From Candidatus Lustribacter sp. (GTDB lineage: Bacteria > Vulcanimicrobiota > Vulcanimicrobiia > Vulcanimicrobiales > Vulcanimicrobiaceae), in NCBI GenBank assembly GCA_965277805.1, contig OZ255842.1, forward strand, positions 2,048,001 to 2,112,000: DNA of 64,000 nt, written 5' to 3'. Below, piece after piece: positions 12,979 to 59,458 of this stretch. Under the pieces are notes generated by a model. That model searched no databases. It was not told the DNA's origin and was given only the letters and a program-made list of their open reading frames with translations. The position numbers were made by a program, and so were the translations under genes. How positions within the stretch are numbered: position 1 is the stretch's first letter; every line of letters begins with the position of its first letter.

Positions 12979-12984
12979 ATATAC

Positions 12985-15059: not shown

Positions 15060-15061
15060 TA

Positions 15062-24542: not shown

Positions 24543-24580
24543 GTTCATCTCCAGCGTGGCGCAGATAGGGGCGCTTCGTG

Positions 24581-44570: not shown

Positions 44571-45590
44571 TTATCCCTTAGAAGCTTCTGCGTACACGCG
44601 TAAGTAGTCGAGCACGACCTCTTTCGTGCGCGTGCGCGCGATACCGCACTCGGTGGAGATGCCGAAGCGTCCGACGTACTGCCGGGCGGCTTGCATGCGA
44701 GCCTTCGTGCCAGAAATGCCGTCGCTCGCGTGAACGAGCCCGAGAAACAATTCGGTCTCGGCCGGTAGGGCGAGATCGCGGAGCGGCGCAAAATAGGCAT
44801 CGTCCGTGCGGCCAGCCGGAACGGGCATGTGGATGTAGCTGATCGGGCGTGGCACCGCGCGCAGCAACAGCCCGGCCATCGACGCGAGCCGTTCGGTATC
44901 GCGCGGTTCGATGAAATGCTTGCCTTTATGATCGCCGTAGCACAAATGAAAGCCGAGACCAACGTCAGTTGGAACCGCCCCGCCGAGTCTTCCGAATGCT
45001 GCCGTTAGGCGATCTTCCAAATCGGGCGTCGCCGGCATGCGTGCCCAACCGCCGTCCCACATCAGCATCTCCATGCACACATCCCACTGAATCAACAGAT
45101 CCTCGTGCGGAATGGCCGCGCAGATCGTCTCGACTTCGCGTAGCATTGCGCGTTCGTATGCCGGCAAGATCACCGGCACCGCTTCACGCGCACAGTAGAC
45201 GACGACCACCGCCGTGGGCGTCGGCAGCGACACTTGAAAGCGGATCGACGGCGCTATGAGGCCTGCCGAGCGGGCTTTGAGAAAATCGACGTACGAGGTG
45301 CGCGCTTCGCGCGCGTACCCGAGTTCACCGAACCGGACGTCTTCGGGCGCGACATCCGGCGCAAGCGAAACGGCAGGGAACGCGCTTACCTGTTCGACCG
45401 GCGCGTCGTTCCTCAAGTACGGGTTTGAGGCGAGAACGGGATATTGCCAGAGGATCCAATGCCGCCGGCCACCCGGTTCGCCGTCCGGGATACTGCGCAA
45501 GTTCGAGCCGAGCATCGAGCCGATCGTCGCGAAGACGTCGTCGACCGTATCCAAGCCCACGCTGCCGACGAAGTGCACCGGATACGCCAT
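44571..45590 (-). CDS. MetE catalytic-domain-like (UROD/MetE fold) Zn protein
   Basis: HFVGSVGL, IPDGEPGGR, FQVSLPTP, IQWDVC, HLCYGD and TECG candidate Zn ligands; AAGGAG SD. Confidence 0.75.
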   Translation of the reverse strand: MAYPVHFVGSVGLDTVDDVFATIGSMLGSNLRSIPDGEPGGRRHWILWQYPVLASNPYLRNDAPVEQVSAFPAVSLAPDVAPEDVRFGELGYAREARTSYVDFLKARSAGLIAPSIRFQVSLPTPTAVVVVYCAREAVPVILPAYERAMLREVETICAAIPHEDLLIQWDVCMEMLMWDGGWARMPATPDLEDRLTAAFGRLGGAVPTDVGLGFHLCYGDHKGKHFIEPRDTERLASMAGLLLRAVPRPISYIHMPVPAGRTDDAYFAPLRDLALPAETELFLGLVHASDGISGTKARMQAARQYVGRFGISTECGIARTRTKEVVLDYLRVYAEASKG

Positions 45591-45600
45591 GTTGTACTCC

Positions 45601-46809
45601 TTAATCCGTGCCGGTAATCGGCAGCAGGCCTTCGGGTCGAACGAACGACCGCAGCGGACGCCCTTCCGCCAGGGCCTTGAGCTCCGTGCTCCACAGCTTA
45701 CGCATCGCGATGATAGCGACGTCGGAACGTCCGAGGTGCTCGACGCCTTTGCGCCGGTCAGCGATGCGCCCCTGACCGGTTTGACAGACGTCGTCTTGCG
45801 CCATCGCAACATGGTGACAGAGCTGCGCCATGTCGTCGTAGCCGATGTCGCCGCGCAACACGGCCTGAGCTGCGACATGCGCCTCTTCCTCCGCGTTCGC
45901 AAACTGTTTCCAGCGCTCGGCGTATGCCGGATCGACCGTATCGCCATGAAGATGAACATTAATGAGACGCAATTCGAGGGTGCTTTCGTCGTCGATCGGC
46001 ACGCGATAGGCTAGGAAATCTTGCCAGGCAACCTCCGCCCGGTTCACTTTCTCCTCACCAGGCTTTTGAATATTGTCGGGATGGACAGTGAAGAGGCCGA
46101 TATTCGGCATGCCGAAAAGCACCTCGCGTTTGTGGCCATGGCGCGTGGCGATGCATTTCATGCCCCACGGGGTTTCCTCGGCCGCGATCTCGGGCAGCTG
46201 ATCGAAGTAGACTTTGGTGAACACCGATGTCCGGTGCGTGAACGCGAGATGGCCCTCGTCCATGAAGTTTTCCACGCACTGAAAGAAATTGCAAGCGCGC
46301 ACGCTCATGAGCGGCATGACGAGCTTTCCCCGCTCCCATTCGGGATACCGCGGAAACTCGGGCGGGTCGCCGCCGCCGAAGTACGCATAGATCAAACCGA
46401 GGTAATCGCGCGCGGGATAGCCGCCGATCTTGACGCGCTGCGCGTAGGTGCTGTCGGGCCCCTCGAGCGGCTGCTCGACGCATTGACCGTTCGCTTCGAA
46501 TTTCCAGCCATGGTACGGACATCGAATGCAGTCGCCTTCCACCCAGCCGGCGTTGAGTTGCGTTCCACGATGCGCGCAGGCTTGGTCGACACAGTGAATG
46601 TCGCCCGACTCGCCGCGGTAGAGCGCGTAGTTCTCACCCATGATGCGCAACGGACGCGCGCGCCCGGGCGCTACGCTCTCACTCAAAGCCACCGGATGCC
46701 AGAACGTGCGCATGTAGCGTCCCGCGATCGTACCGGGGCCGGTGTGGGCGAAATCGACGCCCTCGCCGGCGTCATTTACGGAGGCAGTTCCGGAGAGAGT
46801 GGTCGTCAT
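45601..46809 (-). CDS. Rieske oxygenase alpha subunit, phthalate 4,5-dioxygenase/LigX type
   Basis: TGPGT..GRYMRTFWHP, CAHR...CPYHGW, ENFMDEGHLAFTH, HLGRSD. Confidence 0.9.
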   Translation of the reverse strand: MTTTLSGTASVNDAGEGVDFAHTGPGTIAGRYMRTFWHPVALSESVAPGRARPLRIMGENYALYRGESGDIHCVDQACAHRGTQLNAGWVEGDCIRCPYHGWKFEANGQCVEQPLEGPDSTYAQRVKIGGYPARDYLGLIYAYFGGGDPPEFPRYPEWERGKLVMPLMSVRACNFFQCVENFMDEGHLAFTHRTSVFTKVYFDQLPEIAAEETPWGMKCIATRHGHKREVLFGMPNIGLFTVHPDNIQKPGEEKVNRAEVAWQDFLAYRVPIDDESTLELRLINVHLHGDTVDPAYAERWKQFANAEEEAHVAAQAVLRGDIGYDDMAQLCHHVAMAQDDVCQTGQGRIADRRKGVEHLGRSDVAIIAMRKLWSTELKALAEGRPLRSFVRPEGLLPITGTD

Positions 46810-47810
46810 GAATACTCCTTACTTCGCGATTGAGCCAACGCGGCGCGTGCGATCTCTTCGTCTTCTTCGGCCGAGCGCGCTCCGGCGATCCCGAGCGCTC
46901 CCGCGACGCAACCAATTGCGTCAATGGTCGGCAGACCACCGGCAACGGCTAGAAAGGGAAAGCGAGCGAGACGCCCATACCCGGCTGCGTCCGCCGTCCA
47001 TGGACCTTCCGCGCCGCTGGGCGCTTGCAGGTTCACCGCTGTTGCCGCTTTGGCTTCTGCCAGATCCACCGTGATCGGCGCGGCGGAATCCATCCGGTCG
47101 AGCTGCACCAGATCGCCGTTACGGTCCGCGACCGCAGCACTGATGCGAACGCCTCGGCGCTGCGCTTCCGAAAACGCGGCGTCGACGACGGCCAGTGCCC
47201 AGGTCAGACGCTGCTGCTCGCGCGCCGGCGGCGGAGCGCTCAGACCCGTTCCGGAAGGCAGTGGATCGTACCGATTACCGTACGCCTTGCGCCAGCGCTC
47301 GAGATCGTCGCCGTGCTGTGGCGCATAATGATCCAGGCCGATCGCGTAGGAGATGATGAGGTCGATTGCATTCGCGGGCCGGCCTTCGACCAGAAACTTC
47401 TCCGGATCGACGCCGGGGGAACTGACCTCGGGCGGGATATCCGCTGCGGACGACATCGCTCCCACGTGCGCACCGTTGCGCGTGATCGGCATCGCGCCCG
47501 GTCCGGGGAAGCAGCGGTCGCGCAAGATGTCTTGATAGGCGGCGAAAACGCTCGGCGGCCGGCCGTAGATCCGTGCGGCGAAGCGGGCCGATGTTTCGCG
47601 GTTGGCCGCCGCCTCGTACGCCTTCGCGCGCGAGATGCCCATGCTGATCGATCCGGCGCCATCCATCCGCGACGCCGAAATGACGATGCCGCCCTCGTTG
47701 ACCACGACGAATGCGCCGCGCTGTCCGACGTCCTCGGCCTTGTCGACGGCACGCCGGAGCAGTTCACGCGCGTCGGCGAGCGAGAGCAGTGGAGCTTCGA
47801 ACCCCGTCAT
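46806..47810 (-). CDS. Tandem GlcG/HbpS (heme-binding, DUF336) domain protein
   Basis: Two copies of RMD.A.....A.AKA..A plus GG.P....G...GA.G..G; ATGA coupling on both sides. Confidence 0.82.
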   Translation of the reverse strand: MTGFEAPLLSLADARELLRRAVDKAEDVGQRGAFVVVNEGGIVISASRMDGAGSISMGISRAKAYEAAANRETSARFAARIYGRPPSVFAAYQDILRDRCFPGPGAMPITRNGAHVGAMSSAADIPPEVSSPGVDPEKFLVEGRPANAIDLIISYAIGLDHYAPQHGDDLERWRKAYGNRYDPLPSGTGLSAPPPAREQQRLTWALAVVDAAFSEAQRRGVRISAAVADRNGDLVQLDRMDSAAPITVDLAEAKAATAVNLQAPSGAEGPWTADAAGYGRLARFPFLAVAGGLPTIDAIGCVAGALGIAGARSAEEDEEIARAALAQSRSKEYS

Positions 47811-48412
47811 ACAAACGAACACGAGTCTTGGAATTCCAACCGAGGTAGCCGTCCGAACAACATATCCGGGTTACCGAATCCGACCGAACACAAGAAGTTC
47901 GAGCGATACGACGTGCCGGCCAAGAATGCTCGGTCGACGGCCTCGTGGTCGAATCCCGAGAGCGGCCCGCAATCGAGCCCCAGCGCACGCGCAGCGACGA
48001 TGAAATATGCACCCTGCAGGGTGGAATTGCGAAATGCCGTCGCTTCCGCGTACCCAGTGTCGTCCGCGTAATGGCCGCGCATGTCTTTGTGTGGAAAGAG
48101 CCGCGGCAGATGGTCGAAGAATCGCTCGTCGTAGGCGACGATCGCCGTTACAGGGGCGGACAGCACTTTCGGCTTGTTACCGGGGCTGACAGCCTCGGCC
48201 AGTTGCGCCTTCGCTTGAGCACTGCGCACAAAGATGAAGCGCGCCGGCTGCGAGTTCGTACTCGTGGGTCCGAGCTGGGCCAACCCGATCACCGCTCGGA
48301 GCAGCGCCTCGTCGACCTCCTTCGGCAACCAGCCGTTGTGGCTGCGCGCGGCCCGGAAGATCAAATCGAGACCCTGGTCGTCCAGGGCCCGACGATCGCA
48401 TTCGATATCCAT
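47807..48412 (-). CDS. RutE/HadB-type nitroreductase-family flavoprotein
   Basis: ARSHNGW, GPTSTNSQPARF, RNSTLQGAY, GLDCGPLSGFD, RLPRL. Confidence 0.9.
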   Translation of the reverse strand: MDIECDRRALDDQGLDLIFRAARSHNGWLPKEVDEALLRAVIGLAQLGPTSTNSQPARFIFVRSAQAKAQLAEAVSPGNKPKVLSAPVTAIVAYDERFFDHLPRLFPHKDMRGHYADDTGYAEATAFRNSTLQGAYFIVAARALGLDCGPLSGFDHEAVDRAFLAGTSYRSNFLCSVGFGNPDMLFGRLPRLEFQDSCSFV

Positions 48413-48436
48413 TAGCGCCTTCGCAGGTTCCTTTGT

Positions 48437-48471
48437 TTGAAGAATTTGTCTTTCAAGAATGTGTGTTTGAA
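48437..48471. promoter_or_regulatory. Probable MarR operator array
   Basis: TTGAA (48437) / TTCAA (48452) / TTGAA (48467) at exact 15-bp spacing in the divergent intergenic region. Confidence 0.55.
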
Positions 48472-48525
48472 GGTACTATGCATCTCGCGAGCCGAAACGT
48501 CAACCCTTCTCTAGGGGGTTATGCA

Positions 48526-49110
48526 GTGAAACCGCGGGACCACATCGACCTTGTGCGTAGGGCGGCGGGCATGCCGTCGTCCGACACGACGACGGTCGAA
48601 ATTACCAGCCGCCTTTTCCGGTTGTGCGCGCACTACGATCAACTCGTGTCGCCGCTCTACGCACGCCGCGGGCTGACGCGCGTCGAGCTGGATCTGCTTT
48701 GGGCGCTCGAACGCGCAGGCGATACGCCGCTGACGCCGACCAAGCTGGCGGCGCGGCAAATGTGCGCCTCGGGCACCCTCAGCAATCGCCTCGAAAAATT
48801 GGAGCGGCTGGGCCTGCTCACGCGTCAGGCGGATCCATCCGACCGGCGCGGCGTCCTGCTTGAGATCACCGAGCACGGCCGCACGATCGTCAACGAACTC
48901 AACGCGGCGCGCGAACGTATCGATGCACTTCTAATCCCCGGCCTGACCGTCGCGCAACGGCGCGCATTGGTGGACCTGCTGCGGACATCGCTCATTGCGG
49001 CCGAACAGATCGCGCAGCTGGAAACGGCGAGCGAGACGCCACCGTCCTCCGATGAAGAATCATCTGCACCGCAGCCAGCGCCGCTGCGCCGGACGCGTGC
49101 GGCCCGCTAA
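48526..49110 (+). CDS. MarR-family regulator
   Basis: LTPTKLA...SGTLSNRLEKLERLGLLTR..DPSDRRGVLLEITEHG; AGGGGG SD before GTG. Confidence 0.9.
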   Translation: MKPRDHIDLVRRAAGMPSSDTTTVEITSRLFRLCAHYDQLVSPLYARRGLTRVELDLLWALERAGDTPLTPTKLAARQMCASGTLSNRLEKLERLGLLTRQADPSDRRGVLLEITEHGRTIVNELNAARERIDALLIPGLTVAQRRALVDLLRTSLIAAEQIAQLETASETPPSSDEESSAPQPAPLRRTRAAR

Positions 49111-49143
49111 CATTTCTGCAAACCGCTGTAAGGAAAGGCCCTG

Positions 49144-49527
49144 ATGCAGGTTACCAAAGACGATGTCATGCAAGCCAGCAAAGGCATGCTACAGAAGCAA
49201 TTCTACGTCGTGTTCAGTACGCCGACGAATGGGATTGGTCCCGTGATGGAAAACCTCGAGGCACACCTCGCGCACCAATGCAAGATCGAGGCGGACGGAA
49301 TCATGGTGGCGGCCGGCCCGTACTGGACCGATGACGAGAAGCAATGGGAAGGCGAGGGCATGTTCGTCATTCGTGCGCGATCCCTCGCGCATGCGAAGGA
49401 ACTTGCGGCGAGCGACCCGATGCACAAATGCGGAGCGCGGTCGTTCGTCGTCCGGCCATGGATGGTGAATGAAGGCGGCCTCACTATCCGGCTCACGTTC
49501 TCGGACGGGAAATTCGTTCTTGAGTAA
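49144..49527 (+). CDS. YciI-family protein (copy 1)
   Basis: AHLAHQ, AAGP, GMFVIRA, DPMH...RPW. Confidence 0.85.
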   Translation: MQVTKDDVMQASKGMLQKQFYVVFSTPTNGIGPVMENLEAHLAHQCKIEADGIMVAAGPYWTDDEKQWEGEGMFVIRARSLAHAKELAASDPMHKCGARSFVVRPWMVNEGGLTIRLTFSDGKFVLE

Positions 49528-49573
49528 CGACGTTCCTGAACGGTCTTCTCGCAGCGCCTCGGAGTTCTACTGA

Positions 49574-50764
49574 ATGCCGTCACTAGCGAAGCTCTCGGAG
49601 TCCACTCGCAACTCCGTTTTGACCCTGCCGGTCGACCTCCACGAGTCGAGCCCGTTCACGCGGCCCAAGAAGCCACTCAGCCAATCGCGGGTCGCGATCG
49701 TCACGACGGCCGGATTACACCGCCGCGACGACCGGCCGTTTACCGGCGGGGATCCGACCTTCCGAGCCATACCCTCAGGAACGCCGGCGTCAGAGATCGT
49801 GCAAAGCCACACCAGCATCGGGTTCGACCGGACCGCCGTGCTCGAGGACATCAACGTCGTTTTTCCGATCGAGCGGTTGCGCGAGATGCTTTCGGCGGGT
49901 CGCATCGGGGAGTTGGCGCCGACCTTCTATTCGTTCATGGGCGCGCAGCGTGACTGGTCACCGATCAGGGAGCGAACGGGACCCGAAGTTGCGAACCTGT
50001 TGGTCGGCGATGGTGTCGACGTCGTCTTACTTACACCAACTTGACCACTTTGCACGAACACGGTCAGTGTTCTCTCACGGGTCTTGGAAGAAAACGGGCT
50101 CACGACGGTCGCTTTGAGTCTGATCCGCGAACACACGGAAAAAGTGAAGCCTCCGCGCGCCGTGTACGTTCCCTTTCCGTTGGGTCTGCCGGTCGGTCAT
50201 CCCGGAAACGTTTCCGAACAGGAGGCCGTCTTGGACTTGGCATTTTCCACTCTCGATGCCGCCAGCGGCCCCGTGCTGCTCGACTATCGCGATGACTCGG
50301 CAGCCGAGGAGGCCGGCTCGCCGCTTCAGGCCTCCGACGTCGATGCGGACGAGCAGGCTCGGACGGCTGACTTCGCTACGGAAGTGACGTTGATGCGGCG
50401 CTATTGGGAGCAGCACGTCGCGGCGACCGGCCGCACCGGCGTCGGCTTATCGAACGTCCCGCCGCAGCGGTTCCGCGGCGTCGTGCGGTTTCTCGAAGCT
50501 CTTCTCACCGATCAAACGGCCGACTCGGACGAACGGCCGGCGGAGGTGCCGAGACCGCTGTTCATCCGGACGTGCCTCGAGGACCTACGCGTGATGTACA
50601 GTGAAGCGCGCTTGCAAACGCATCCACATGAGTCAAGTCAAGACCGGCAACGTTGGTTGCTCGGCTCGACCGCGCTCGGGCTCATGCTGCGCAGCCTGCG
50701 CGATACCTTCGACGCCTCGACCGATCCGCAGTTCAAAGCGCTCGCCTTCGGTATCGCGCGCTGA
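49574..50764 (+). CDS. PrdB/GrdB-family selenoprotein (396 aa, Sec157, UxxC) with a C-terminal extension
   Basis: Two same-frame ORFs joined by TGA 50042-50044: VLLTPT-U-PLCTNTVSVLSRVLEENGLTT; family motifs on both sides (KPLSQSRVAIVTTAG, DINVVFPIERL; KPPRAVYVPFPLG); the in-window paralog has Cys here. Confidence 0.85.
50045..50072 (+). promoter_or_regulatory. Candidate bacterial SECIS element
   Basis: Stem GAACAC/GTGTTC (50056-61/50067-72) with GGTCA loop starting 17 nt after the UGA. Confidence 0.65.
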
Positions 50765-50768
50765 TTCG

Positions 50769-51152
50769 ATGGAAGAACAGGAGCGGTTCTCATCCTTACA
50801 CACATGGGCACGGCGCGCGGGAGACGTCGTGACGGTCGGTATCAGCGCCTACGCCGAACATCAATTGGGTGAGCTGCAATACGTCGGTCTACCGCGCGTC
50901 GGCTCTGCCGTTGTGAAAGACCAGTGCTTCGGTGAGGCTGAATCGACGAAGACCGTTTCCGACCTCTACGCTCCGTGCAGCGGCACCGTCGTTGCGGTCA
51001 ACTCCGAACTCATTGCCGATCCTGCGCTGGTCAATCGCGATCCGTATGGCGCGGGGTGGATAATACTGGTTGAGCCGTCGCAGCCCGGGGAATTCCACGA
51101 ATTGCTCGACCAGCCGGCGTACGACGCGTTCGTCGCCACGCAGGAGCATTGA
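50769..51152 (+). CDS. gcvH: Glycine-cleavage H-protein-like lipoyl carrier
   Basis: HTWAR, VGISAYA..QLG, lipoyl-Lys motif ESTKTVSDLYAP, VNRDPYGAGW. Confidence 0.9.
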   Translation: MEEQERFSSLHTWARRAGDVVTVGISAYAEHQLGELQYVGLPRVGSAVVKDQCFGEAESTKTVSDLYAPCSGTVVAVNSELIADPALVNRDPYGAGWIILVEPSQPGEFHELLDQPAYDAFVATQEH

Positions 51153-51206
51153 GGCATCCAAGCTATGCTTTCAACCTAAGATGATAAGCGAGGGGGCTTG
51201 TACCAC

Positions 51207-51400
51207 GTGCTAAGATCCACATTCGTCTCTTCCAGTCTGAGCCTAACGGCAGCGGCGGAATTGCCGCTGCCGGTAGGCGCCCAATCTGTCGCGTTCGCTC
51301 CAGATGCCACCCGAAGCCGTCGGGCAGAGGTGGTTACGACAATGAACCTTGCGCGCCCGGGCGTTTCGCAGGCGTGGATCCCCTTGCCGTCAGTGAGCGC
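51207..51400 (+). pseudogene. Possible N-terminal remnant of a secreted (transglutaminase-like) protein
   Basis: Degenerate signal peptide, then EVVTT...SQAWIPLPSV, then no continuation. Confidence 0.3.
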
Positions 51401-51544
51401 CCTAGCCGTTCTTGATGTATCCTCAAGCCGTGAACGCGGGCATCGCCTGCGACTGCCTCGATCCAAAGGCTGTCGCTTATTCGATCACGGTAACGGCCTA
51501 GTTTCTCTCTTCGAAGGCGACGCGACGTTCCCGAGGTACTCAAC

Positions 51545-52516
51545 ATGTCCGCTGCAATCCATTCGCTCGATCACTTTAGCTTCGCCGTCCCTGACGTAGC
51601 CGCCGCGGCTGCGTTCTACGAACGCTTCGGCCTCGATGTCCGCTCGGAAGGTACGGGTTTCACGCTGCGCGCGAGCGGCAGCGATCACGTTTGGGGTCGC
51701 ATTTACGAAGGCCCGCGAAAAGCCATCGGTTACCTCTCGTTCGGCGCGTACGAGCACGATATGCCGCAACTGCGCAAGCAAGTCGCCGGATGCGGAGTGG
51801 CGTTACTGCCGGCTCCGAAACGTGCCGTCGACGATGGCGGGGTGTGGTTCGAGGATCCGGACGGGACACTAATAGAGATTCGCGTCGGTCCGAAGGTCTC
51901 GCCTGACGTAAAAGCTGCGCTGAGCGCGACGTTTGCCCCGCCCGATGTCGCTGGTGCGCCCATGCGCTCCGACGCCAAGACGGTGCGGCCCGACCGTCTT
52001 TCGCACGTGCTCGTGTTCACGAGCGATGTCTCGCGCGCGATCGACTTTTATCGCGAGACCGTTGGCATGCAGCTCTCCGATCGGGCTCGGGACGGCATCG
52101 GGTTCATGCACGGCGCACACGGCAGCGACCATCACCTCGTCGCATTCGCGAAATCTGACGCTCGCGGATTTCATCATTGCAGTTGGAACGTAGCTTCGGT
52201 GAGCGATGTCGGCCTAGGTGCGATGCAAATGGCCGATGCGGGATACACTCGCGGGTGGGGAATGGGGCGGCACGTACTCGGGTCAAACTATTTTGACTAC
52301 ATCCGCGACCCGTGGGGAAGCTACTCCGAATATTCCTACGATATCGATTTCGTCACTCCGGGAGCGGTTGCGAAAGGCACGTGGAAAGCGACCGACGCAT
52401 CGCCCGAAAATGGCTTCTACTTGTGGGGGCCGTTGCCACCTGACGATTTCGCCTTTAATTACGAGTCGCCGTCGGCCGAATTACAACGGGACCTCGTCGC
52501 AAGCGAACCGCGGTAA
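51545..52516 (+). CDS. Two-domain VOC extradiol dioxygenase-like protein
   Basis: C-domain ligands LSHVL, HHCSW, GRHVLGSNYFDYIRDPWGSYSEY; GAGG SD. Confidence 0.88.
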   Translation: MSAAIHSLDHFSFAVPDVAAAAAFYERFGLDVRSEGTGFTLRASGSDHVWGRIYEGPRKAIGYLSFGAYEHDMPQLRKQVAGCGVALLPAPKRAVDDGGVWFEDPDGTLIEIRVGPKVSPDVKAALSATFAPPDVAGAPMRSDAKTVRPDRLSHVLVFTSDVSRAIDFYRETVGMQLSDRARDGIGFMHGAHGSDHHLVAFAKSDARGFHHCSWNVASVSDVGLGAMQMADAGYTRGWGMGRHVLGSNYFDYIRDPWGSYSEYSYDIDFVTPGAVAKGTWKATDASPENGFYLWGPLPPDDFAFNYESPSAELQRDLVASEPR

Positions 52517-52734
52517 GCGTGCGTCAAAAATGTAACGATGCGGCGATTTAGCGGTGCCAGCAGAACAATGAGCGGAATCATCGCTAACCAGGCAAAGAGC
52601 CATGCGCGGACCCATAGCAAGAACGTTGACTGCAAATGCAATAAGAGTCCTGTTGCGATCGCGGCTGTGACCGCTGTTGTTGCGCCGGACTGAATGGTTC
52701 CAAAAAGTAAATCAGCGTAACGCTTGTTGATCAT
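52459..52734 (-). CDS. Small membrane protein, DUF2798-like
   Basis: Two hydrophobic helices; QSG.T...A...W..AWL.AW..M.P......AP..RR pattern. Confidence 0.6.
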   Translation of the reverse strand: MINKRYADLLFGTIQSGATTAVTAAIATGLLLHLQSTFLLWVRAWLFAWLAMIPLIVLLAPLNRRIVTFLTHAYRGSLATRSRCNSADGDS

Positions 52735-52790
52735 GCGCTCGTTCCAAGTCGCCAGCTGGCGTAAATTTTGTCTGCCCAATCGTACTGGCC

Positions 52791-53738
52791 TCAACCCGGA
52801 AAAATGAGCTCGGACGCTGGGAAGGCCGGAAATTTTTGGTACTTGGCGGCTAGATCGATCGACGGTTGAAGCTGCCCGGTCGCGAGCTTTTCGGCGAATG
52901 TCGCGCGGTGGACGTGGGCGACGAATTCCGGATCTTGCTTGAGCTTGCTGGCCACGATTGGTACGACTTTATCGGGATTTGCCTTCGCCCAGGCGGCCGA
53001 TTCGACCATGACGCGCGCAAATCGCGCGACGAGATCGGTATGCGCCTTCGCCCAGGTAGCTGTCGCGCACCATGCCGTTACTAGGTAGGGCGGTGCGAGA
53101 ACTTCGTCTCCTGACGTGAGCAACTTCGCTTGCCCCTTCTGGATTGCGATCGTGAAGAATGGCTCATTGAGCCACCCCGCATCGGCGCGTCCCGCAGCAA
53201 GGGTATCACCAATTGCGGGAAACGGGACCTCGAGAAACTTGATCGTGGCCGAATCACCGCCATTCTTGTCCATCCAAGCTCGCGGTATGAACTCGGCTAG
53301 CGATCCGAGTCCCGGAATCGCGATCGTCTTGCCCTGGAGGTCTCCTGGGCCCTTGATCGCCGAGTTCGGTGGCACGACGATCCCGCCCTGAACGAGGCCC
53401 TTTTCGACATCTCCTTGCGGCCCGACGATCACGAACGGCAGTCCCTTGGCATGGGCCAGTGCAAGATTCGTGATCGTCGCGTTCCCGATGTCGAACGTTC
53501 CAGCGAGTATCGCCGGCAAGATAGCCGCTCCGGTTGATAGCTGACCTATCTCCGCGCTGATCCCGGCCTTCGCAAAAAAGCCGTTCGCCTCGGCGTAATA
53601 CGGCTGGCACCCGGGCTCGATCGGGACAACTGCGACCTTCACCAACGGAAGGTCGACGGCGCGAGCGACGCCCCTGACACTTGGAAGAGCGAACGCTCCG
53701 GCTATAGCTTGTGCGGCTCGGTGGCGGGTGATGTTCAC
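52791..53738 (-). CDS. ABC solute-binding protein, NMT1/SsuA type
   Basis: YYAEANGFFAKAGI, DLQGKTIA, WMDKNGGD, NEPF. Confidence 0.88.
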   Translation of the reverse strand: MNITRHRAAQAIAGAFALPSVRGVARAVDLPLVKVAVVPIEPGCQPYYAEANGFFAKAGISAEIGQLSTGAAILPAILAGTFDIGNATITNLALAHAKGLPFVIVGPQGDVEKGLVQGGIVVPPNSAIKGPGDLQGKTIAIPGLGSLAEFIPRAWMDKNGGDSATIKFLEVPFPAIGDTLAAGRADAGWLNEPFFTIAIQKGQAKLLTSGDEVLAPPYLVTAWCATATWAKAHTDLVARFARVMVESAAWAKANPDKVVPIVASKLKQDPEFVAHVHRATFAEKLATGQLQPSIDLAAKYQKFPAFPASELIFPG

Positions 53739-54634
53739 GGTGTGAATGCGCTCGGAAAGATATGAAGCATGACGATTTTCCGAGCGGCTTCAGAACTTCT
53801 TTGGTAGCACGTCTGCAGCGTTACTTTCATGCCGTCACCTTTGGCGTTGCAACATGAGGCTTGGCTAAGATAATTGCCCGGACCGTTCACTGTTGGAGAA
53901 AGTACCATCCGCGCGTTTGTAGCATAGGAATCTCGACAATATGAAGTGGAGTGGAAGTCCTAGTAGTCCCACTACCCCTCGCATAAGCCAGCTTGATCGC
54001 GCAACGTCAGCACGATGCGTTGAGCGCTCGGGCTCACATTCAGTCGGATGGGATGATCGTCGAGTGGGTGGCGACGGCTGCGCAGGTGACCGACGGACGG
54101 CGGCCGTTGCGGTCGCGTCGCGCGGACGTGCGCGCGAAGGGATGCAGGACGGCCTGTGCTTAAAGCGCGCTCGAAGGTCGAACTATTCCAGCTCGCGCAG
54201 TGTTGCCACGAACGCTTGAGCCGCTTGCAGAGTCATACCATGAAGCATCAGAATGACGACATTCAGTTCATCGTCTTGCACCGAAGACGCATGTGCGATG
54301 TTCTCTGAGCCGCCCATAATGTTGCCAAGAGCCCGCCCAAATGCAGAGCTCCAACCATTGTTGATTGCGGTTTGGCGGACTAGCCGCTTATACCATTTAA
54401 GCATGGAGGCCGCGCAGGACCAGTCCGAACAGTCGCTGCGTTTTAACTTGAGTCAAGATTTACGCCTTTGCGCGATGTTGCGCGACTACTTCGCTTGGGA
54501 ACGAATCGAACCTCGGTCTGCCTCACCAACACGGTGAGGTTTCGCCTCGGGCCGTGGCGCTAAATTCAAGAACAGCGTGACTACTCCGGATCCACGCTCA
54601 TCACGGGCAATGCGGTCCGAAATGGCGCGATGCC

Positions 54635-55492
54635 CTAATCGCCTTCTGACACTTCCCCGCGACGATCGCGAAGCCGCACTAGTCGCTGAAGCGCGCTGCT
54701 GCTTTCCTCATCAACGGGCGTCTGCAGGAACACCATGACCCCCGGAAGTGCGGGCGGCTCCAGCGTCATGGACCTCACCGCGATCGGTCCGGCGGCCGTT
54801 TCGAAAGTGATCGGCGTCGCCGGACCACGGCCCACGATCTTTTCCGACCACGCGCGCGTGAAGTCGGGTGAATCGGCGAGCGCGTCTAGCAGCTCGTCGA
54901 TACGCGCATCCGCACCGTGACGCGCGTACAATGAGCGAAAGATGGCCACCGGACCGAGCGACATCTCGTCCCAGCTCCGCACGATATGGCGGAGCGCCGG
55001 ATCCTTGAACATGCGCCAGATGTGATTGTTGGCTTTCCAATCGGTTGCGTCGCTGAACTCGTAGAGGGCCGCCGTGCGCCGATTCCAGGCAAGGTGATCC
55101 ATGCGGGCGTTGACCGCGAACGCGCTGCCGGTGAACGCGTGCAGCATCGCCTGGACATCGGCCGGAACCGCGGTGACCAGCTCGCCCCACGGCACGATCT
55201 GCCGTTCGGCCAGGCCGAAGACATAGCCCGACTCTTCCGGCGAAAGGCGCAGCACGCGAGAAATCCGCGTAAGGACTTCGGACGAGGGGCGTACTGGGCG
55301 CCCTTGCTCGAGCCAGGTGTACCAAACGACGCCAATGTGCGCCAGGCTGGCCACCTCCTCGCGACGCAAGCCACGCGCGATCCGGCGCGCACCTCGCTCT
55401 AAGCCGGCAGCCTCTGGCGCGATCGCCTGGCGCCGCGAGCGCAAGAACATGCCGAGCTCTTTGCGACGTGCGGCCGGGTCATCAGAATTCAT
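54635..55492 (-). CDS. XRE-family (HTH_31 + MmyB ligand-binding) regulator
   Basis: RRKELGMFLRSRR, GLRREEVASLA.IGVVWYTWLEQGR...PS, AWN. Confidence 0.92.
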   Translation of the reverse strand: MNSDDPAARRKELGMFLRSRRQAIAPEAAGLERGARRIARGLRREEVASLAHIGVVWYTWLEQGRPVRPSSEVLTRISRVLRLSPEESGYVFGLAERQIVPWGELVTAVPADVQAMLHAFTGSAFAVNARMDHLAWNRRTAALYEFSDATDWKANNHIWRMFKDPALRHIVRSWDEMSLGPVAIFRSLYARHGADARIDELLDALADSPDFTRAWSEKIVGRGPATPITFETAAGPIAVRSMTLEPPALPGVMVFLQTPVDEESSSALQRLVRLRDRRGEVSEGD

Positions 55493-55506
55493 GACAGCTC
55501 TTTGAG

Positions 55507-55529
55507 GAGTACTCGCAGTACTAGTACTG
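55507..55529. promoter_or_regulatory. Probable operator of the XRE/MmyB regulator
   Basis: Perfect palindrome CAGTACTAGTACTG (55516-55529) plus GAGTACTC (55507-55514) between divergent genes. Confidence 0.6.
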
Positions 55530-55599
55530 TTTCTTGCCTTTGTGGCGGCCGCACTCCTGTGCTACAAAGCCTCGGACGGTACTTGCGGGGGATGCGCTC

Positions 55600-56607
55600 A
55601 TGACTGATTCCGGCACATTTTCGCTTGCCAAAGCCCGCGCATTGCTTTCGCGCGCCGTAGCAAAATGCGAGGCCTTTGGGCAATCCGGCACCTTCGTCGT
55701 CGTCGACGCCTCGGGCGCTCCGGTGAGCGTGGCGCGTATGGACGGCTGCGCCCCCTCGGCGCTGCCGCTGGTTCGTGCGAAGGCGTTCGCCACCGCCGCG
55801 AACGGCGAGCCGAGCGCGCTCTTCGCCGCACGCATGGAGAAGTTCGGTCCCCACACGTTTGCGAGCTATCAGGCCGTTCTGCGCGACCAGCCGTTTCCGG
55901 GCGCCGGCGGTGTACCGGTGCGGGAGAACGGGAGGATCGTCGGAGCGATTGCGACCGGCCTGCGCATCGGGCCGTTCGTCAAGTTGCCCGGCATCTCGCC
56001 GTCGCAACTGATCGCCGACGGCAAGCCGGGCAATCTCGAGGATACGATCATCAGCTACGCGCTCGGCGTACCGTACAATCCGCAGCACGGCGATGACGCT
56101 GCGCGCTGGACCGAAGCCTATGGCGCGCCGCCGGACCCGGCGGAAAAAGGAACGGCCATGGACCCGGTTCCGGAAGCGAGCGCGCAACCCGAACTCGCGC
56201 GCGCGCGCGCAATTGCCGATCGCGTGATCGCGCGCGCCACGGAAAAGGGCGCGCGCGTGGCCGTTGCGGTTGTCGATGCGGCCGGCGATGCCGTCACGCT
56301 CGATCGCATGGACGGCGCGCCGCCGATGGGGGTCGACGTCGCCGCAGCCACCGCGACCGCCGCCGTCAATTTTGGCATGGCGTCGGGGGCGATCGCAGCC
56401 GACCGCCACTATTCGAGCGTTCTCGACAGCGTGCTCACAACCGTCCCATACCGGATGCTGACGTTGCCCGGCGGATGTCCGATTCGCAGCGGAACGGCGG
56501 TGCTCGCTGCCATCGGTGTGTATTGTCATGATCTCGACCTCGCCGCCGAGCTTGCGCAGAGTGCGGCGGATTGGGTCTTACCGCAATTCGAAGGAAGTGG
56601 TCAATGA
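55600..56607 (+). CDS. Tandem GlcG/HbpS domain protein (paralog of 46806..47810)
   Basis: RMDGC..AKAFATA and RMDGAPP; shared IISYA.G..Y.PQHGDD..RW..AYG linker. Confidence 0.82.
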   Translation: MTDSGTFSLAKARALLSRAVAKCEAFGQSGTFVVVDASGAPVSVARMDGCAPSALPLVRAKAFATAANGEPSALFAARMEKFGPHTFASYQAVLRDQPFPGAGGVPVRENGRIVGAIATGLRIGPFVKLPGISPSQLIADGKPGNLEDTIISYALGVPYNPQHGDDAARWTEAYGAPPDPAEKGTAMDPVPEASAQPELARARAIADRVIARATEKGARVAVAVVDAAGDAVTLDRMDGAPPMGVDVAAATATAAVNFGMASGAIAADRHYSSVLDSVLTTVPYRMLTLPGGCPIRSGTAVLAAIGVYCHDLDLAAELAQSAADWVLPQFEGSGQ

Positions 56608-57809
56608 TAGAACAGGATCGCATCGACATCGACATCGCTCCGCTCACCGATCCTGGCACGGTCGACTATGTCCACACCGGCCCCGGCACCTTGGCCGGCA
56701 CCTACTTACGGCGCTTTTGGCACCCCGTCTATTGCAGCCGTAACCTCGAGCCCGGCTTCGCTAAGCCGCTGACGATCATGAGCCAGAAATTGGCGCTGTA
56801 CCGCAGCCAGGAAGGCCAGGTCCACTGCGTCGACAACCGCTGTGCGCATCGCGGCGCGATGCTCAGCACGGGCTGGGTCGAGGGCGACGTCATCCGCTGC
56901 CCCTATCATGGCTGGGCGTACGGGGCCGATGGCAGGTGCGTGGAGCAGCCGATGGAACGAGCGACATTCGCCAAGCATATTCGCATCGGCGGCTACCCGA
57001 CGCAAGAATATCTCGGCTTCATCTGGCTCTATCTCGGCAACGGCGAACCGCCCCCGTTTATACGCTATCCCGAATGGGAGAATGCGCCCTTCGTTTCCGC
57101 TCAGATCGACACGCGGCCATGCAATTGGTTTCAGAACATCGAGAACTATCAAGACGAAGCTCACGTTTGGTTCACGCACAAGCGCTCCGCGCTCGAAGGC
57201 CTCGATCTGAACCATCTGCCGCAGCTCTCGTGTGAGAAAACGCCCTGGGGCTTGCGTATGATCGCAAAGAAACAGGACGGCAACGACCGCATCGTGCAGT
57301 TCGGTATGCCCAACATCTGCATGTTCGCCGTGCATCCGGACAACATTAAACGCCAGGGCGAAGAACGCAACGCCGACGAGACAGCGTGGCAGATGTTCCT
57401 CGACTACCGGGTGCCGGTGGACGATTTCTCGCATCTGCAAGTGCACTGTATCGCGACGTTCATGAACGGGACGCCCAGCGAAGAGTACAAGAAGCGCTGG
57501 AAAGACTTCGCGAACGCCGAAGCCGAGGCCCACGAGGTCGCGCAGAAAGTGCTGCGCGGCGAACTCCAGTACGATAGGATCGCCGAAATATGCCACCACG
57601 TGCCACTTGCGCAAGACGAAGTTGTGCAAGTGGGCCAGGGCGTCATTGCGGATCGCCGGCGCGGCATCGAAAATCTGGGCTCGACGGACGTCGGCGTCGT
57701 CGCGATCCGGCGACTGTATACGCAGGAGCTCACGGCGCTGGCCGAAGGCCGGCCGCTCGGGAATTTCGAGCGGCCGGAGGGACTGTTGCCCAAAGGCGGC
57801 GGCGACTAA
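56604..57809 (+). CDS. Rieske oxygenase alpha subunit (paralog of 45601..46809)
   Basis: HTGPGTLAG.YLRRFWHP, CAHR...CPYHGW, ENYQDEAHVWFTH; shared FGMPNI..F.VHPDNI and CHHV..AQD. Confidence 0.9.
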   Translation: MIEQDRIDIDIAPLTDPGTVDYVHTGPGTLAGTYLRRFWHPVYCSRNLEPGFAKPLTIMSQKLALYRSQEGQVHCVDNRCAHRGAMLSTGWVEGDVIRCPYHGWAYGADGRCVEQPMERATFAKHIRIGGYPTQEYLGFIWLYLGNGEPPPFIRYPEWENAPFVSAQIDTRPCNWFQNIENYQDEAHVWFTHKRSALEGLDLNHLPQLSCEKTPWGLRMIAKKQDGNDRIVQFGMPNICMFAVHPDNIKRQGEERNADETAWQMFLDYRVPVDDFSHLQVHCIATFMNGTPSEEYKKRWKDFANAEAEAHEVAQKVLRGELQYDRIAEICHHVPLAQDEVVQVGQGVIADRRRGIENLGSTDVGVVAIRRLYTQELTALAEGRPLGNFERPEGLLPKGGGD

Positions 57810-58192
57810 TGCCGGTTTCCAAAGAGGACATCCTTGAAGCCGGTAAAGGCATGCTGCAAAAGCAGTATTACGTCGTCTTCAGCACGCCGACGAACGGTAT
57901 CGGTCCCGTGATGGAAAATCTCGAGGCGCACCTCGCGCATCAATGTAAGATCGAGGCCGACGGCATTATGGTGGCGGCCGGACCGCACTGGACGGATGAC
58001 GAGACGCAGTGGGAGGGCGACGGGATGTTCGTCATCCGCGCACGGGACCTCGTGCACGCAAAGGAGCTTGCGGCGAGCGATCCGATGCACAAATGCGGAG
58101 CGCGGTCGTTCAAAGTCCGCCCGTGGCTGGTGTGCGAAGGCGGCTTTACCATACGGATCACGTTTTCGGACGGCAAATTCGCACTCGAGTAA
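57809..58192 (+). CDS. YciI-family protein (copy 2)
   Basis: 108/127 aa identical to 49144..49527 by manual alignment; TAATG coupling. Confidence 0.88.
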   Translation: MPVSKEDILEAGKGMLQKQYYVVFSTPTNGIGPVMENLEAHLAHQCKIEADGIMVAAGPHWTDDETQWEGDGMFVIRARDLVHAKELAASDPMHKCGARSFKVRPWLVCEGGFTIRITFSDGKFALE

Positions 58193-58223
58193 CGTCGCGC
58201 TCATCGGCGGAAAGTGAAGGCTC

Positions 58224-58577
58224 ATGCTCTACCTCAGAATGTGTTTTGACAGTCCCGGTAAGGAACAGCTCCGCGATGCCACGCGGTCGGAGCACCGCGC
58301 CTACCTCGTCCCATTTCTGGCCCCCGGCGGGGACGTCCACATCGTTCAGGCCGGTCCCATGTGCGGCAGCGATGAGAGCGATCAGAACGTGGGCAGCTTT
58401 TTCGTCGTCGAAGCCACGTCGATAAAGGCGGTCGAGGCCTTTCACGCCGGCGATCCGTTCACGCAAAAAGGCGTGTTCGGAAACGCGACGGTCGTGCGGT
58501 GGGATCGGCACATCGACAGTAGCAGCGAATCGCACGCGACGTTCGCCGCACAAAACGCCCGGCCGGCTGTCGGATAA
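58224..58577 (+). CDS. YciI-family protein, canonical type
   Basis: D.PG..QLR..TR.EHRAYL, AGP, GSFFVVEA, DPFT..GVF. Confidence 0.85.
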   Translation: MLYLRMCFDSPGKEQLRDATRSEHRAYLVPFLAPGGDVHIVQAGPMCGSDESDQNVGSFFVVEATSIKAVEAFHAGDPFTQKGVFGNATVVRWDRHIDSSSESHATFAAQNARPAVG

Positions 58578-58579
58578 CG

Positions 58580-59458
58580 ATGCCGTACAGCTTCTCCCGC
58601 TTTCTGGCCGAACTGGGGCGATCGATTCCGATGCCCGAATTCGATCCGCCCACGCTCGTGCCGTTGCGCAAGCCCATCGCCGAGTCGACAATCGGGATGT
58701 TCGTCAGCTGCGGCGCGCAACTGCCCGAAGACCCGCCGCTGCTCGAGACGGAAGACATCACGTTCCGGTTGTTGCCACGCGACGTCCCGACCGATCGACT
58801 AGTCATTTCGCATCAAACGCTGGTACGGAAGTGGGCGGTAGAAGACCTGAACGTCGCATACCCGATCGACCGCATGAAGGAGCTGGAACGTGAGGGAACG
58901 TTCAAGCGGCTCGCGCACACAAACGTCTCAATGGTCGGTTCGATCGAGCGCTATACCGAATTGATGGAACAGACAGTGCCGCGGATGAAGGCCGTCTTTG
59001 ACTCGCAAGGTGTCGACCTCGTCTTGTTGCTGCCGTTCTGCCCCGCATGTCATCGGGCGACGGGCCTCGTCGCTCGGGCGTTGGAGGCCCGCGGGCTGCC
59101 GACCATTAGCACGAGCGTGCTGTGGGAAATGAGCGCTGCCGTCAAGCCGCCGCGCACGTGCTTCCTAGATTTTCCGCTAGGTTGCCCGGCCGGCAAGCCG
59201 CACGAAGTAGCGCAGCAGCGCGACATTCTCCGTCAAACGCTGCAACTCGCACCGGAGTTCGACGCCGACAGCTGGGCGATGAAGTCGCTGCCGTTTCAAT
59301 GGGATGCCGACGGAAGTCGCGACTGGGAGCGCGCGACAGAAGACCTCTACCGAAACGGTGGAATCAAGATTACCGATCGGCACATGGCGGCGCACGCAAA
59401 CGTCGGCGAGTCGTTACTTGGCAACGAGCGCGCCTTCGCAGTCAAATGTAACTGTTAA
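58580..59458 (+). CDS. PrdB/GrdB-family Cys homolog (CxxC) with a C-terminal CxC
   Basis: KPIAESTIG, EDLNVAYPIDRM, VLLLPFCPACHRATGLVARALEARGLPT, KPPR...DFPLG; ends KCNC-stop. Confidence 0.85.
   Translation: MPYSFSRFLAELGRSIPMPEFDPPTLVPLRKPIAESTIGMFVSCGAQLPEDPPLLETEDITFRLLPRDVPTDRLVISHQTLVRKWAVEDLNVAYPIDRMKELEREGTFKRLAHTNVSMVGSIERYTELMEQTVPRMKAVFDSQGVDLVLLLPFCPACHRATGLVARALEARGLPTISTSVLWEMSAAVKPPRTCFLDFPLGCPAGKPHEVAQQRDILRQTLQLAPEFDADSWAMKSLPFQWDADGSRDWERATEDLYRNGGIKITDRHMAAHANVGESLLGNERAFAVKCNC

Follow-up and report, generated by a model that had tools for sequence, protein, structure and literature searches.

Two diverged gene cassettes pair PrdB-family proteins with Rieske oxygenase, DUF336 and YciI genes in an aromatic-catabolism island of Candidatus Lustribacter

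What might a protein of the PrdB/GrdB family do when its gene lies among those of oxygen-dependent enzymes, and why should it lie there twice with the same companions? Both questions are raised by a 64,000-nucleotide stretch of the genome of Candidatus Lustribacter sp. (contig OZ255842.1, positions 2,048,001 to 2,112,000), which we call the window and in whose own coordinates all positions are given: between 44571 and 59458, Pfam scans find a tandem DUF336/GlcG protein (GlcG2), a Rieske oxygenase, a YciI protein and a PrdB/GrdB-family protein, each present twice. The reading that we favour, with a probability of roughly 0.4, is that these are two anciently diverged, lineage-restricted catabolic cassettes within a large aromatic-degradation island, in which a thiol or selenol reductase handles an electrophilic ring intermediate.

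The gene map is based on an open reading frame (ORF) listing and on Pfam and NCBIfam family scans of 64 window ORFs, and it recovered, in place, nearly every gene of an initial annotation that had reported the four families in two copies. Copy 1 consists of two divergent operons flanking a MarR-family regulator gene (48433-49110, plus strand; PF12802 and PF01047; this is the longest ORF, and the true start may be downstream). On the minus strand, in order of transcription, come a RutE-type nitroreductase-family reductase, divergent from the MarR gene (47807-48412; NF003768 at 272.1 bits against a cut-off of 152; PF00881), a tandem DUF336 protein of GlcG/HbpS-like type (46806-47822, with a likely ATG at 47810 that overlaps the RutE stop; two stretches of PF03928, 126.7 bits), an alpha-only, LigXa-like Rieske non-haem-iron oxygenase (45601-46809; PF00355, 78.6 bits) and, as the last gene, a 339-residue protein with no assigned family (44571-45590). 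On the plus strand after the MarR gene lie a 127-residue YciI protein, here YciI-A (49144-49527; PF03795 at 33.0 bits against a cut-off of 24), a 396-residue PrdB/GrdB-family selenoprotein with the centre T-U-P-L-C, where U is selenocysteine (Sec) (49574-50764, with the in-frame TGA read as Sec at 50042-50044), and a GcvH lipoyl-carrier protein (50769-51152; PF01597, 117.9 bits). Copy 2 is a single packed plus-strand operon opposite, and divergent from, an MmyB-type XRE regulator gene (54635-55492, minus strand; PF17765 at 106 bits, PF13560). Its five genes encode a tandem DUF336 protein, again GlcG/HbpS-like (55534-56607, likely ATG 55600; two PF03928 stretches, 130.3 bits), a LigXa-like Rieske protein (56571-57809, likely ATG 56604; PF00355, 82.7 bits), YciI-A (57809-58192; PF03795, 32.6 bits), an ordinary YciI found in copy 2 only, here YciI-B (58224-58577; PF03795, 51.7 bits), and a PrdB/GrdB-family protein in the Cys form, F-C-P-A-C, with a C-terminal C-N-C (58580-59458).

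The genes of each operon are closely joined. In both copies GlcG2 runs into the Rieske gene through an ATGA overlap, as RutE does into GlcG2 in copy 1; in copy 2 the Rieske stop and the YciI-A start overlap as TAATG; 4 nt separate the stop of the copy-1 PrdB(U) gene from GcvH, and an AAGGAG ribosome-binding site for the 339-residue gene lies 10 nt past the copy-1 Rieske stop. Junctions of this kind point to translational coupling.

The two copies have diverged unequally. Protein identity between them is 85% for YciI-A, 55% for the Rieske protein, 47% for GlcG2 and 35% for the PrdB-like protein; at the DNA level only the YciI ORF (82.9%, stopping at the gene borders) and the Rieske gene (64%) can be aligned, and the flanks are unalignable. 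In a FastTree phylogeny of the PrdB-like family (60 sequences, 287 columns, rooted on true PrdB and computed without support values), the copy-1 and copy-2 proteins fall in separate clades of a large family, and the copy-2 Rieske protein is closer to a Sphingobium jiangsuense protein (76%, among the matches listed) than to its copy-1 counterpart (55%). With DNA likeness restricted to the YciI ORF and the Rieske gene, a recent block duplication is rejected; unequal identities and PrdB-like genes drawn from different clades both speak against simple duplication, as the initial annotation had argued from differing layouts, regulators and divergence levels. The two occurrences are paralogous and not independent events. 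That the same four families have been joined using different family members is the strongest internal argument that the combination is meaningful.

Are the PrdB-like proteins the reductase subunits whose name they bear? For both, the best NCBIfam model is TIGR04483 (PrdB), yet their scores of 146.8 bits (copy 1) and 134.4 bits (copy 2) lie below its 300-bit equivalog cut-off; Pfam GRDB (PF07355, gathering cut-off 22 bits) is passed by copy 1 at 43.0 bits and marginally by copy 2 at 22.4 bits. A genome scan anchored on the PrdB-like family gave 70 loci from 94 pattern matches, some of them on short contigs without full 10-kb flanks, and these loci were searched by tblastn (E<=0.01) with all 16 window proteins. 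In a genuine prd operon, on a Ligilactobacillus salivarius plasmid (L078), prdA, a small gene, prdB, prdD, a prdE-like gene and a proline racemase gene stand in a row. With PrdA, PrdD, PrdE-like and racemase queries, tblastn (E<=0.01) matched neither the window nor a single one of the 70 loci, and a true PrdB query, used as a positive control, matched both window genes (37% and 29% identity). Scans of the 64 window ORFs found no GrdA- or GrdE-type family. The absence of PrdA from the window, claimed earlier, is thus borne out and extends to the 70 loci. On this sequence evidence, the annotation 'D-proline reductase' is wrong for both window proteins. What they have in common with PrdB (TIGR04483) and protein B (PF07355) is a homologous core of about 200 residues and a Sec/Cys-x-x-Cys centre in the aligned position, with Sec and a downstream hairpin of SECIS (selenocysteine insertion sequence) type in copy 1; a dithiol donor is plausible for them as well. 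They differ in lacking, like the 70 loci, a PrdA/GrdE pyruvoyl partner, PrdD/E and a racemase, in scoring below the equivalog cut-off, in being encoded among O2-dependent enzymes in an aerobe-type catabolic island, and in what surrounds the core, namely a C-terminal extension of roughly 170 residues in copy 1 and a CxC tail with extra conserved Cys in copy 2. An annotated prdB on a Peptoclostridium acidaminophilum megaplasmid (L077:4965-5678) has no prdA beside it in an incomplete gene table, so some prdB copies may stand alone even in an anaerobe.

Sec decoding of the copy-1 gene is well supported by comparison with its relatives. Read through its TGA, the protein is 52% identical over residues 1-396 to a Cys homologue (P0122); in an alignment of 14 sequences the TGA stands opposite Cys and the frame is conserved past it, and the Sec/Cys-x-x-Cys centre column is conserved across these 14 sequences and the 70 loci. 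At the active-site codon, 21 of 22 copy-1-type loci have TGA and one has TGC (L053), with no TAA or TAG, and 47 of 48 copy-2-type loci have TGY, the remaining one TGA (L047). A search of representative proteins with the copy-1 protein returned 2376 matches at E<=0.001, and among the best 150 of these many stop at query residue 155/156 or start at 165-167; a break around residues 155-167 is the signature of gene callers stopping at the Sec codon. The initial annotation had likewise assigned the Sec form to copy 1 and the Cys form to copy 2, which the TGA and Cys at the aligned site support.

Beginning 14 nt after the U of UGA, a SECIS-like hairpin, GAACAC-GGUCA-GUGUUC, occupies 50056-50072 on the plus strand; it was compared with the bacterial SECIS consensus, in which a stem-loop follows closely on the UGA and its apical loop has a conserved G. 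When 23 sequences are aligned without gaps, 78.8% of cells pair as the hairpin requires; the figure for shuffles is 61.8%, and none of 500 attains the observed value. All six pairs of columns 15-20/26-31 have compensatory changes, loop G22 is invariant, and slid-partner controls pair at 18-56%. Weighing against the hairpin are RNAalifold, which retains only three upper pairs at -1.09 kcal/mol, an overlap of the stem with conserved codons, the lack of any Rfam family match in the window, and the fold of the 60 nt after the TGA, which is not stabler than shuffles (z 0.52); for this last reason only the local hairpin with its covariation is taken as evidence. None of selA, selB, selC and selD is among the 64 window ORFs scanned, and the window, to which this search was confined, has no tRNA.

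The two PrdB-like clades differ in build. Members of the copy-1 clade are mostly Sec forms with the C-terminal extension of roughly 170 residues seen in the window protein, and only their U/CxxC pair is conserved; in a Rhodospirillaceae metagenome-assembled genome (MAG) two Sec-type PrdB-like genes stand in tandem, each with an active-site TGA (L058:8729-11107). Members of the copy-2 clade are short with a C-x-C terminus, and across 35 sequences C154, C157, C202, C290 and C292 are invariant and C44 nearly so. The copy-2 window protein is 66-70% identical to Acidobacteriota homologues. Its AlphaFold2 (AF2) model has a mean predicted local distance difference test score (pLDDT) of 92.8, with the last three residues, C-N-C, disordered; a Foldseek search of the model against the PDB gave no match at E<=0.001 (best template-modelling score, TM, 0.33), and phmmer of the PrdB-like protein against PDB sequences gave none either. 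A deltaproteobacterial MAG (L047:10001-10879) holds the one Sec form (TGA, F-U-P-Q-C) found in this otherwise all-Cys clade, with GST and AhpC genes nearby.

The partner genes narrow the chemistry that might be involved. In both Rieske proteins the CxH...CxxH and DxxHxxxxH motifs are intact. Among solved structures the best match to the copy-2 protein is 7fhr, a 'putative phthalate 4,5-dioxygenase alpha' (E 1.6e-33), and one source gives many of the best 120 of 4182 homologues the name 5,5'-dehydrodivanillate O-demethylase (LigXa). The Pfam domain LigXa_C (PF19301), carried by many homologues, reaches 16.6 and 21.8 bits on the window proteins against a cut-off of 27. The Rieske proteins look like LigXa-type O-demethylases, which would move the likely substrates from chloro-aromatics to methoxylated, lignin-derived aromatics. 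Their likeness to LigXa and the phthalate-family alpha-only Rieske enzymes lies in the Rieske and mononuclear-iron motifs, the alpha-only make-up, the LigXa name on homologues and the phthalate-dioxygenase type of 7fhr; they differ in a sub-threshold LigXa_C, in having no LigXc/LigXd-type ferredoxin or reductase nearby and in the overlap of each gene with a tandem DUF336 gene.

The tandem DUF336 proteins, each with its two PF03928 stretches, resemble an atlas cluster of 353-residue HbpS-like proteins (score 0.95), and the best PDB sequence match of the copy-2 C-terminal domain is EfgA (6bws, E 4.3e-10, one domain). EfgA binds formaldehyde directly, and DUF336 genes have been noted in aldehyde-making pathways, according to the portions of PMC8153426 available. 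As best solved relative of the C-terminal DUF336 domain, EfgA (PMC8153426; PDB 6bws/6c0z) offers a parallel in that the window neighbour is putatively aldehyde-producing; it differs in that the window proteins have two domains and are of modest similarity, and in that EfgA acts on translation in methylotrophs with no known oxygenase partner. The kinship fits an O-demethylase neighbour, though the similarity is modest.

YciI-A belongs to a highly conserved family, 63-87% identical across phyla; YciI-B is a weak match to YciI-A (32% over 44 residues). Plasmids of Martelella and Streptomyces carry genes for YciI-A homologues, about 50% identical, beside ring-cleavage dioxygenase genes and with no PrdB-like gene. 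The YciI-family protein TftG is a 5-chlorohydroxyquinol dehydrochlorinase that works with a quinone reductase in chlorophenol pathways. From those pathways, by analogy rather than by sequence kinship, we borrow the logic of elimination followed by reduction, the window likewise having YciI beside a nitroreductase-family reductase and ring-cleavage dioxygenases; the differences are that no halogen-specific genes are seen and that the proposed reductant is the PrdB-like protein, not a flavoprotein or glutathione. GcvH passes NF002270 (133.2 against 117 bits), just misses TIGR00527 (115.0 against 115.85) and contains a lipoyl-lysine-type motif, ESTKTVSDLYAP. A GcvH-like lipoyl protein that serves outside glycine cleavage has a precedent in LbpA, which in the available text of PMC6067878 serves sulfur oxidation.

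How could these activities be joined? We propose two halves. In the first, the translationally coupled tandem DUF336/GlcG protein and alpha-only, LigXa-like Rieske mono-oxygenase, with DUF336 as an accessory, would most likely O-demethylate or hydroxylate a methoxylated lignin- or peat-derived aromatic, yielding a catechol- or hydroquinone-type product and formaldehyde. The second would comprise the conserved 127-residue YciI encoded just upstream of the stand-alone PrdB/GrdB-family protein with its U/CxxC centre. YciI might carry out a TftG-like elimination or tautomerisation that gives a quinone- or enone-type electrophile, to which the selenolate or thiolate of the PrdB-like protein would add; the resolving Cys would then attack Se or S, freeing a two-electron-reduced or de-substituted product and leaving an Se-S or S-S bond, a step modelled on the second half-reaction of proline and glycine reductase. 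The dihydrolipoyl arm of GcvH, co-translated with the copy-1 protein, could then reduce the Se-S bond again, and for the S-S bond of copy 2 the C-terminal CxC tail, which is conserved and flexible, might offer the route. In the Enzyme Commission (EC) reaction of D-proline reductase (dithiol), dihydrolipoate serves as donor. Stated in full, the proposal is that aerobic aromatic catabolism has taken over Stickland-type selenol chemistry, and that a PrdA-independent PrdB-family selenoenzyme, recharged by dihydrolipoyl GcvH, performs a covalent (selenoether) two-electron reduction of a ring-derived quinone or enone supplied by the LigXa-like oxygenase and YciI; in so specific a form we regard it as unlikely. 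Candidate reactions under it could be reductive loss of a methoxy, hydroxy or halogen group, or an ene- or maleylacetate-type reduction. The reductive cleavage of a C-X, C-S or C-N bond put forward in the initial annotation seems chemically reasonable.

How far does the combination extend beyond the window? All four families together occur in 0 of the 70 PrdB-like loci of other species, so that the module fails as a widely distributed unit. GlcG2, the 339-residue protein and RutE are each found in none of the 70; YciI-A-like genes occur in three (L037, L045, L066), GcvH in one (L053) and Rieske-domain genes in six (L002, L009, L031, L062, L063, L068), all distant and none adjacent. Even six Vulcanimicrobiota loci (L001-L005 and L031; PrdB-like identity 49-91%) are without the partner set within the flanks available. 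All of the five top-ranking loci (77-91% identity) belong to Vulcanimicrobiota/Eremiobacterota. Co-occurrence in other genomes, on which the initial annotation had staked the idea of a functional unit, is therefore negative beyond close relatives. At the same time, with GlcG2 at 0, YciI-A-like genes at three and Rieske genes at six of 70, the joint double occurrence in the window is not the background of PrdB-like loci.

Recurrence was seen among metagenome proteins about 75-94% identical to those of the window, whose placement on shared contigs was inferred from matching contig sizes across three hit tables and not from sequence read. On that footing, a 31,099-bp contig carries a Rieske protein (P0419) and a YciI 91% and 90% identical to those of copy 1; contigs of 7,285, 29,404, 7,910 and 1,441 bp carry PrdB-like (89-94%) and YciI-A (74-87%) proteins; and a 3,506-bp contig carries Rieske (93%) and YciI-A (83%). 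The same inference places on the window's own 5,533,281-bp contig, outside the window, a Rieske protein 91% identical to that of copy 2 (P0393), a YciI-A (P0276, 86%) and two more copy-2-type PrdB-like proteins (P0005, 92%; P0007, 91%), so that a third or fourth cassette may exist. This pattern suggests that the four-family combination is restricted to this lineage, recurring only in close relatives, probably Vulcanimicrobiota.

Parts of the combination reach further. A link between YciI and PrdB-like genes appears outside the lineage in three of 70 loci, in both PrdB clades. In Amycolatopsis (L045) YciI lies directly upstream of the PrdB-like gene, and its neighbours include VOC, lactonase and SDR genes as well as, at a distance of 2-5 kb, GcvT, PurU and MTHFR genes; in Streptomyces (L037) one operon comprises PrdB-like, FAA hydrolase, VOC dioxygenase, lactonase, YciI, FAD mono-oxygenase and SDR genes; and in L066 YciI and PrdB-like genes are 2.3 kb apart. 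The closest full-length copy-1 relative outside the lineage, a Cys form from Umezawaea (L053; 46%), is followed by GcvH within a chlorocatechol-like operon (L053:4638-13298), where it comes after dienelactone hydrolase, muconate cycloisomerase and DUF1330 genes; the operon also has intradiol dioxygenase and LysR genes. No maleylacetate reductase was found among the ORFs scanned at that locus, and the PrdB-like and GcvH pair might replace it. Copy-2-type genes usually have aromatic-catabolism genes around them, FAD aromatic hydroxylases lie near the PrdB-like genes of L001 and L036, and in 20 of the 70 loci, going by approximate ORF calls and clusters, the PrdB-like gene has an Amidohydro_2 gene no more than 6 kb away. 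On plasmids, a GlcG2 query found no match, and the contexts of distant Rieske homologues are unrelated.

Several observations besides those of the genome scan weigh against the two-cassette reading. The Rieske/GlcG half and the YciI/PrdB half of copy 1 form separate, divergent operons, and YciI-A homologues are found as well in places that have no PrdB-like or Rieske gene. The 64 window ORFs scanned include no ferredoxin or reductase to serve the Rieske enzymes, though one could be encoded elsewhere in the genome, and the recurrence in relatives depends on inferred contig placement. The six conserved Cys of the copy-2 clade could equally form a metal or Fe-S site. Sec-type members from marine and soil Proteobacteria, Chloroflexota and Gemmatimonadota lie in mixed, often housekeeping contexts, including glycosyltransferase, tRNA synthetase and transporter genes, with GST genes adjoining in L047, L059 and L066; for these members a general redox role fits better than a dedicated pathway step. 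Plasmid-borne PrdB-like genes of aerobes stand alone, for example beside SelO in Roseomonas.

In the main alternative, two independent pairs share an island but not a pathway, GlcG2 with the Rieske oxygenase on one side and, on the other, YciI with the PrdB-like protein as a general electrophile or redox defence; regulated by a MarR- or MmyB-type protein, this second pair might detoxify quinones or aldehydes, for example, or reduce protein disulfides. We consider this possible, if on the doubtful side. The divergent placement of the copy-1 pairs around the MarR gene agrees with it, as do the absence of the four-family set from all 70 loci and the stand-alone PrdB-like genes found elsewhere in varied contexts (GST adjoining in the three loci just named, AhpC in L047, SelO on the Roseomonas plasmid), and a MarR gene with nitroreductase and VOC dioxygenase genes resembles quinone-stress regulons. 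Two unrelated pairs fit poorly with copy 2, whose five genes form one tightly overlapping operon, with the assembly of the same combination from PrdB-like genes of two clades, and with relatives in which, on the inferred contig placement, the combination seems to be kept.

A considerably less probable account centres on formaldehyde or one-carbon (C1) handling: DUF336 would bind formaldehyde, and the PrdB-like protein with lipoyl-GcvH would capture or reduce a C1 adduct in the manner of glycine cleavage or glycine reductase. LigXa-like Rieske enzymes of O-demethylase type would be a source in keeping with this, GcvH normally carries an aminomethyl C1 unit, and L045 has GcvT-, PurU- and MTHFR-type genes 2-5 kb from its YciI and PrdB-like pair. 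The best solved DUF336 relative, EfgA, is a direct formaldehyde binder, yet the match is modest (E 4.3e-10, one domain) and the EfgA clade is almost exclusive to methylotrophs, both points on EfgA itself following the available text of PMC8153426. In addition, copy 2 is without GcvH, GcvT and folate genes were not found in the window cassettes, and no known chemistry joins PrdB-type centres to C1 adducts.

Slightly less probable again is the idea that the Cys residues of the copy-2 clade (C44, C154, C157, C202, C290 and C292) bind a metal or an Fe-S cluster; the protein would then transfer electrons or play a structural part, perhaps for the Rieske enzyme that lacks a reductase, and would not be a thiol-disulfide reductase. 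Five invariant Cys and one nearly so among 35 sequences would suit such a site, and the 64 window ORFs scanned include no Rieske reductase or ferredoxin gene; but C154 aligns with the copy-1 Sec and is encoded by TGA in L047, which is typical of redox or nucleophilic centres and not of cluster ligands, and the copy-1 clade conserves the U/CxxC pair only. That the window instead encodes a genuine, anaerobic Stickland-type D-proline or glycine/betaine reductase with its partner subunits elsewhere in the genome is highly improbable, for although TIGR04483 is the best model and the proteins are 29-37% identical to annotated PrdB, their 146.8 and 134.4 bits are far under the 300-bit cut-off, PrdA, PrdD, PrdE-like and racemase genes, adjacent in a real prd operon, are missing from the window and the 70 loci, and the neighbours are oxygen-dependent enzymes.

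The two-cassette reading places in context a family that has been catalogued before. In Sargasso Sea data 'proline reductase PrdB' with a UxxC centre, at 42 genes, ranked third in abundance among selenoprotein families (PMC1088965, Zhang et al. 2005), and 235 Sec and 110 Cys PrdB forms were counted in Global Ocean Sampling (GOS) data, in a report whose available text never mentions 'PrdA' (PMC2398784, Zhang & Gladyshev 2008); the accessible part of a 2026 review describes the clostridial PrdB enzyme only (PMC13188914). The window proteins resemble these aerobic marine selenoproteins, which are stand-alone UxxC proteins, abundant in oxic communities and with Cys homologues, and copy-1-type loci include marine Alpha- and Gammaproteobacteria and SAR324. 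The difference is one of setting: in what is available of the two surveys (PMC1088965, PMC2398784) the family is listed without function or gene context, and YciI, GcvH, Rieske, DUF336 or an aromatic setting are not mentioned. A description of the module as undescribed, given in the initial annotation, therefore needs amending, inasmuch as stand-alone PrdB-type selenoproteins of aerobic communities have been listed since 2005, and holds in that the available text of those surveys gives them no function. The literature covered, mostly open-access main texts without supplements, yielded no link of the PrdB-like family to Rieske, YciI, DUF336, GcvH or aromatic catabolism, and a search for PrdB-like or GrdB-like proteins returned fluoroacetate work only. 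There, FarB and FarE, GrdB and GrdE homologues proposed for the reductive defluorination of fluoroacetate (PMC10838667), offer a parallel for protein-B-type selenol chemistry on a C-X bond other than C-N; by the same partly available source they differ in being anaerobic, in keeping the GrdE-type partner and in feeding the glycine reductase system.

The remainder of the region bears out the aromatic-catabolism setting proposed in the initial annotation, as do the related loci. Following GcvH after a gap of 392 nt, a two-domain VOC or extradiol-type ring-cleavage dioxygenase gene (51545-52516, plus strand; two stretches of PF00903) is of uncertain cassette membership; homologues 30% identical to its product share operons with YciI and PrdB-like genes in L037 and L045, and it is 27% identical to a VOC gene product encoded beside YciI on a Streptomyces plasmid. 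The label 'MetE-like', previously given to the gene at 44571-45590, could not be verified: its 339-residue product matches no Pfam or NCBIfam model, even with the threshold relaxed to E<=10, nor any PDB sequence, its single-sequence AF2 model is unusable (pLDDT 42.6), and its atlas neighbours, unnamed or automatically called 'methionine synthase family', with Pfam-labelled clusters at 0.79-0.80, are a lead only. Intergenic DNA next to the MarR gene (48413-48480) contains the inverted repeats TTTGAAGA / TCTTTCAA, and that next to the MmyB gene (55493-55599) contains AGTACT-type palindromes; these repeats in the two divergent promoter regions could be operator sites. A promoter and terminator scan of the window did no better than on shuffled sequence.

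Upstream, positions 1-44000 form a dense aromatic-catabolism island with five Amidohydro_2 genes, two FAA hydrolases, a bicupin, FAD hydroxylases, a CoA transferase and a CoA ligase, and a molybdenum hydroxylase, and the window further carries VOC dioxygenases. Two VanA-type Rieske O-demethylase genes lie at 98-1192 and about 23496-24600. About a dozen solute-binding proteins (Peripla_BP_6, NMT1) are also encoded in positions 1-44000, none seen with adjoining permease genes. Elsewhere, thirteen Acidobacteriota and Verrucomicrobiia MAG loci (L006, L008, L010, L012, L013, L017-L020, L023, L024, L026 and L028; around 9,100-15,500 in most) have a string of genes for a ~210-residue protein with no Pfam match, a copy-2-type PrdB-like protein, Amidohydro_2, a dihaem cytochrome c and a pyrroloquinoline quinone (PQQ) dehydrogenase, often with a molybdenum aldehyde-oxidase-type gene nearby, a neighbourhood more widely conserved than that of the window. 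An Amidohydro_2-PrdB pairing was considered for the present genome and rejected, the Acidobacterial Amidohydro_2 proteins being at best 31% identical to window proteins.

PrdB-type selenoproteins are among the commonest of oxic seawater, yet they are named after an anaerobic enzyme whose partner they lack. What is new here is that this catalogued family without an assigned function is found in a lineage-specific catabolic setting with a dedicated lipoyl carrier. The window offers two testable contexts, a Cys version in a compact five-gene operon, which could be expressed without selenium machinery, and a Sec version coupled to its own GcvH. Should the link to the Rieske oxygenase prove false, what stands is still an annotation correction and a well-supported Sec call in a phylum with few. 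Should it prove true, soil phyla about which little is known (Vulcanimicrobiota, Acidobacteriota) would be seen to break down aromatics from lignin and peat by way of a novel type of reductive step, lipoyl carriers would gain a second non-canonical use, and there would be a reason for aerobes to keep a costly selenoprotein; and if the selenoether reduction proposed above were itself correct, the 'PrdB' selenoproteins found in oxic soils and oceans would for the first time have a biochemical role.

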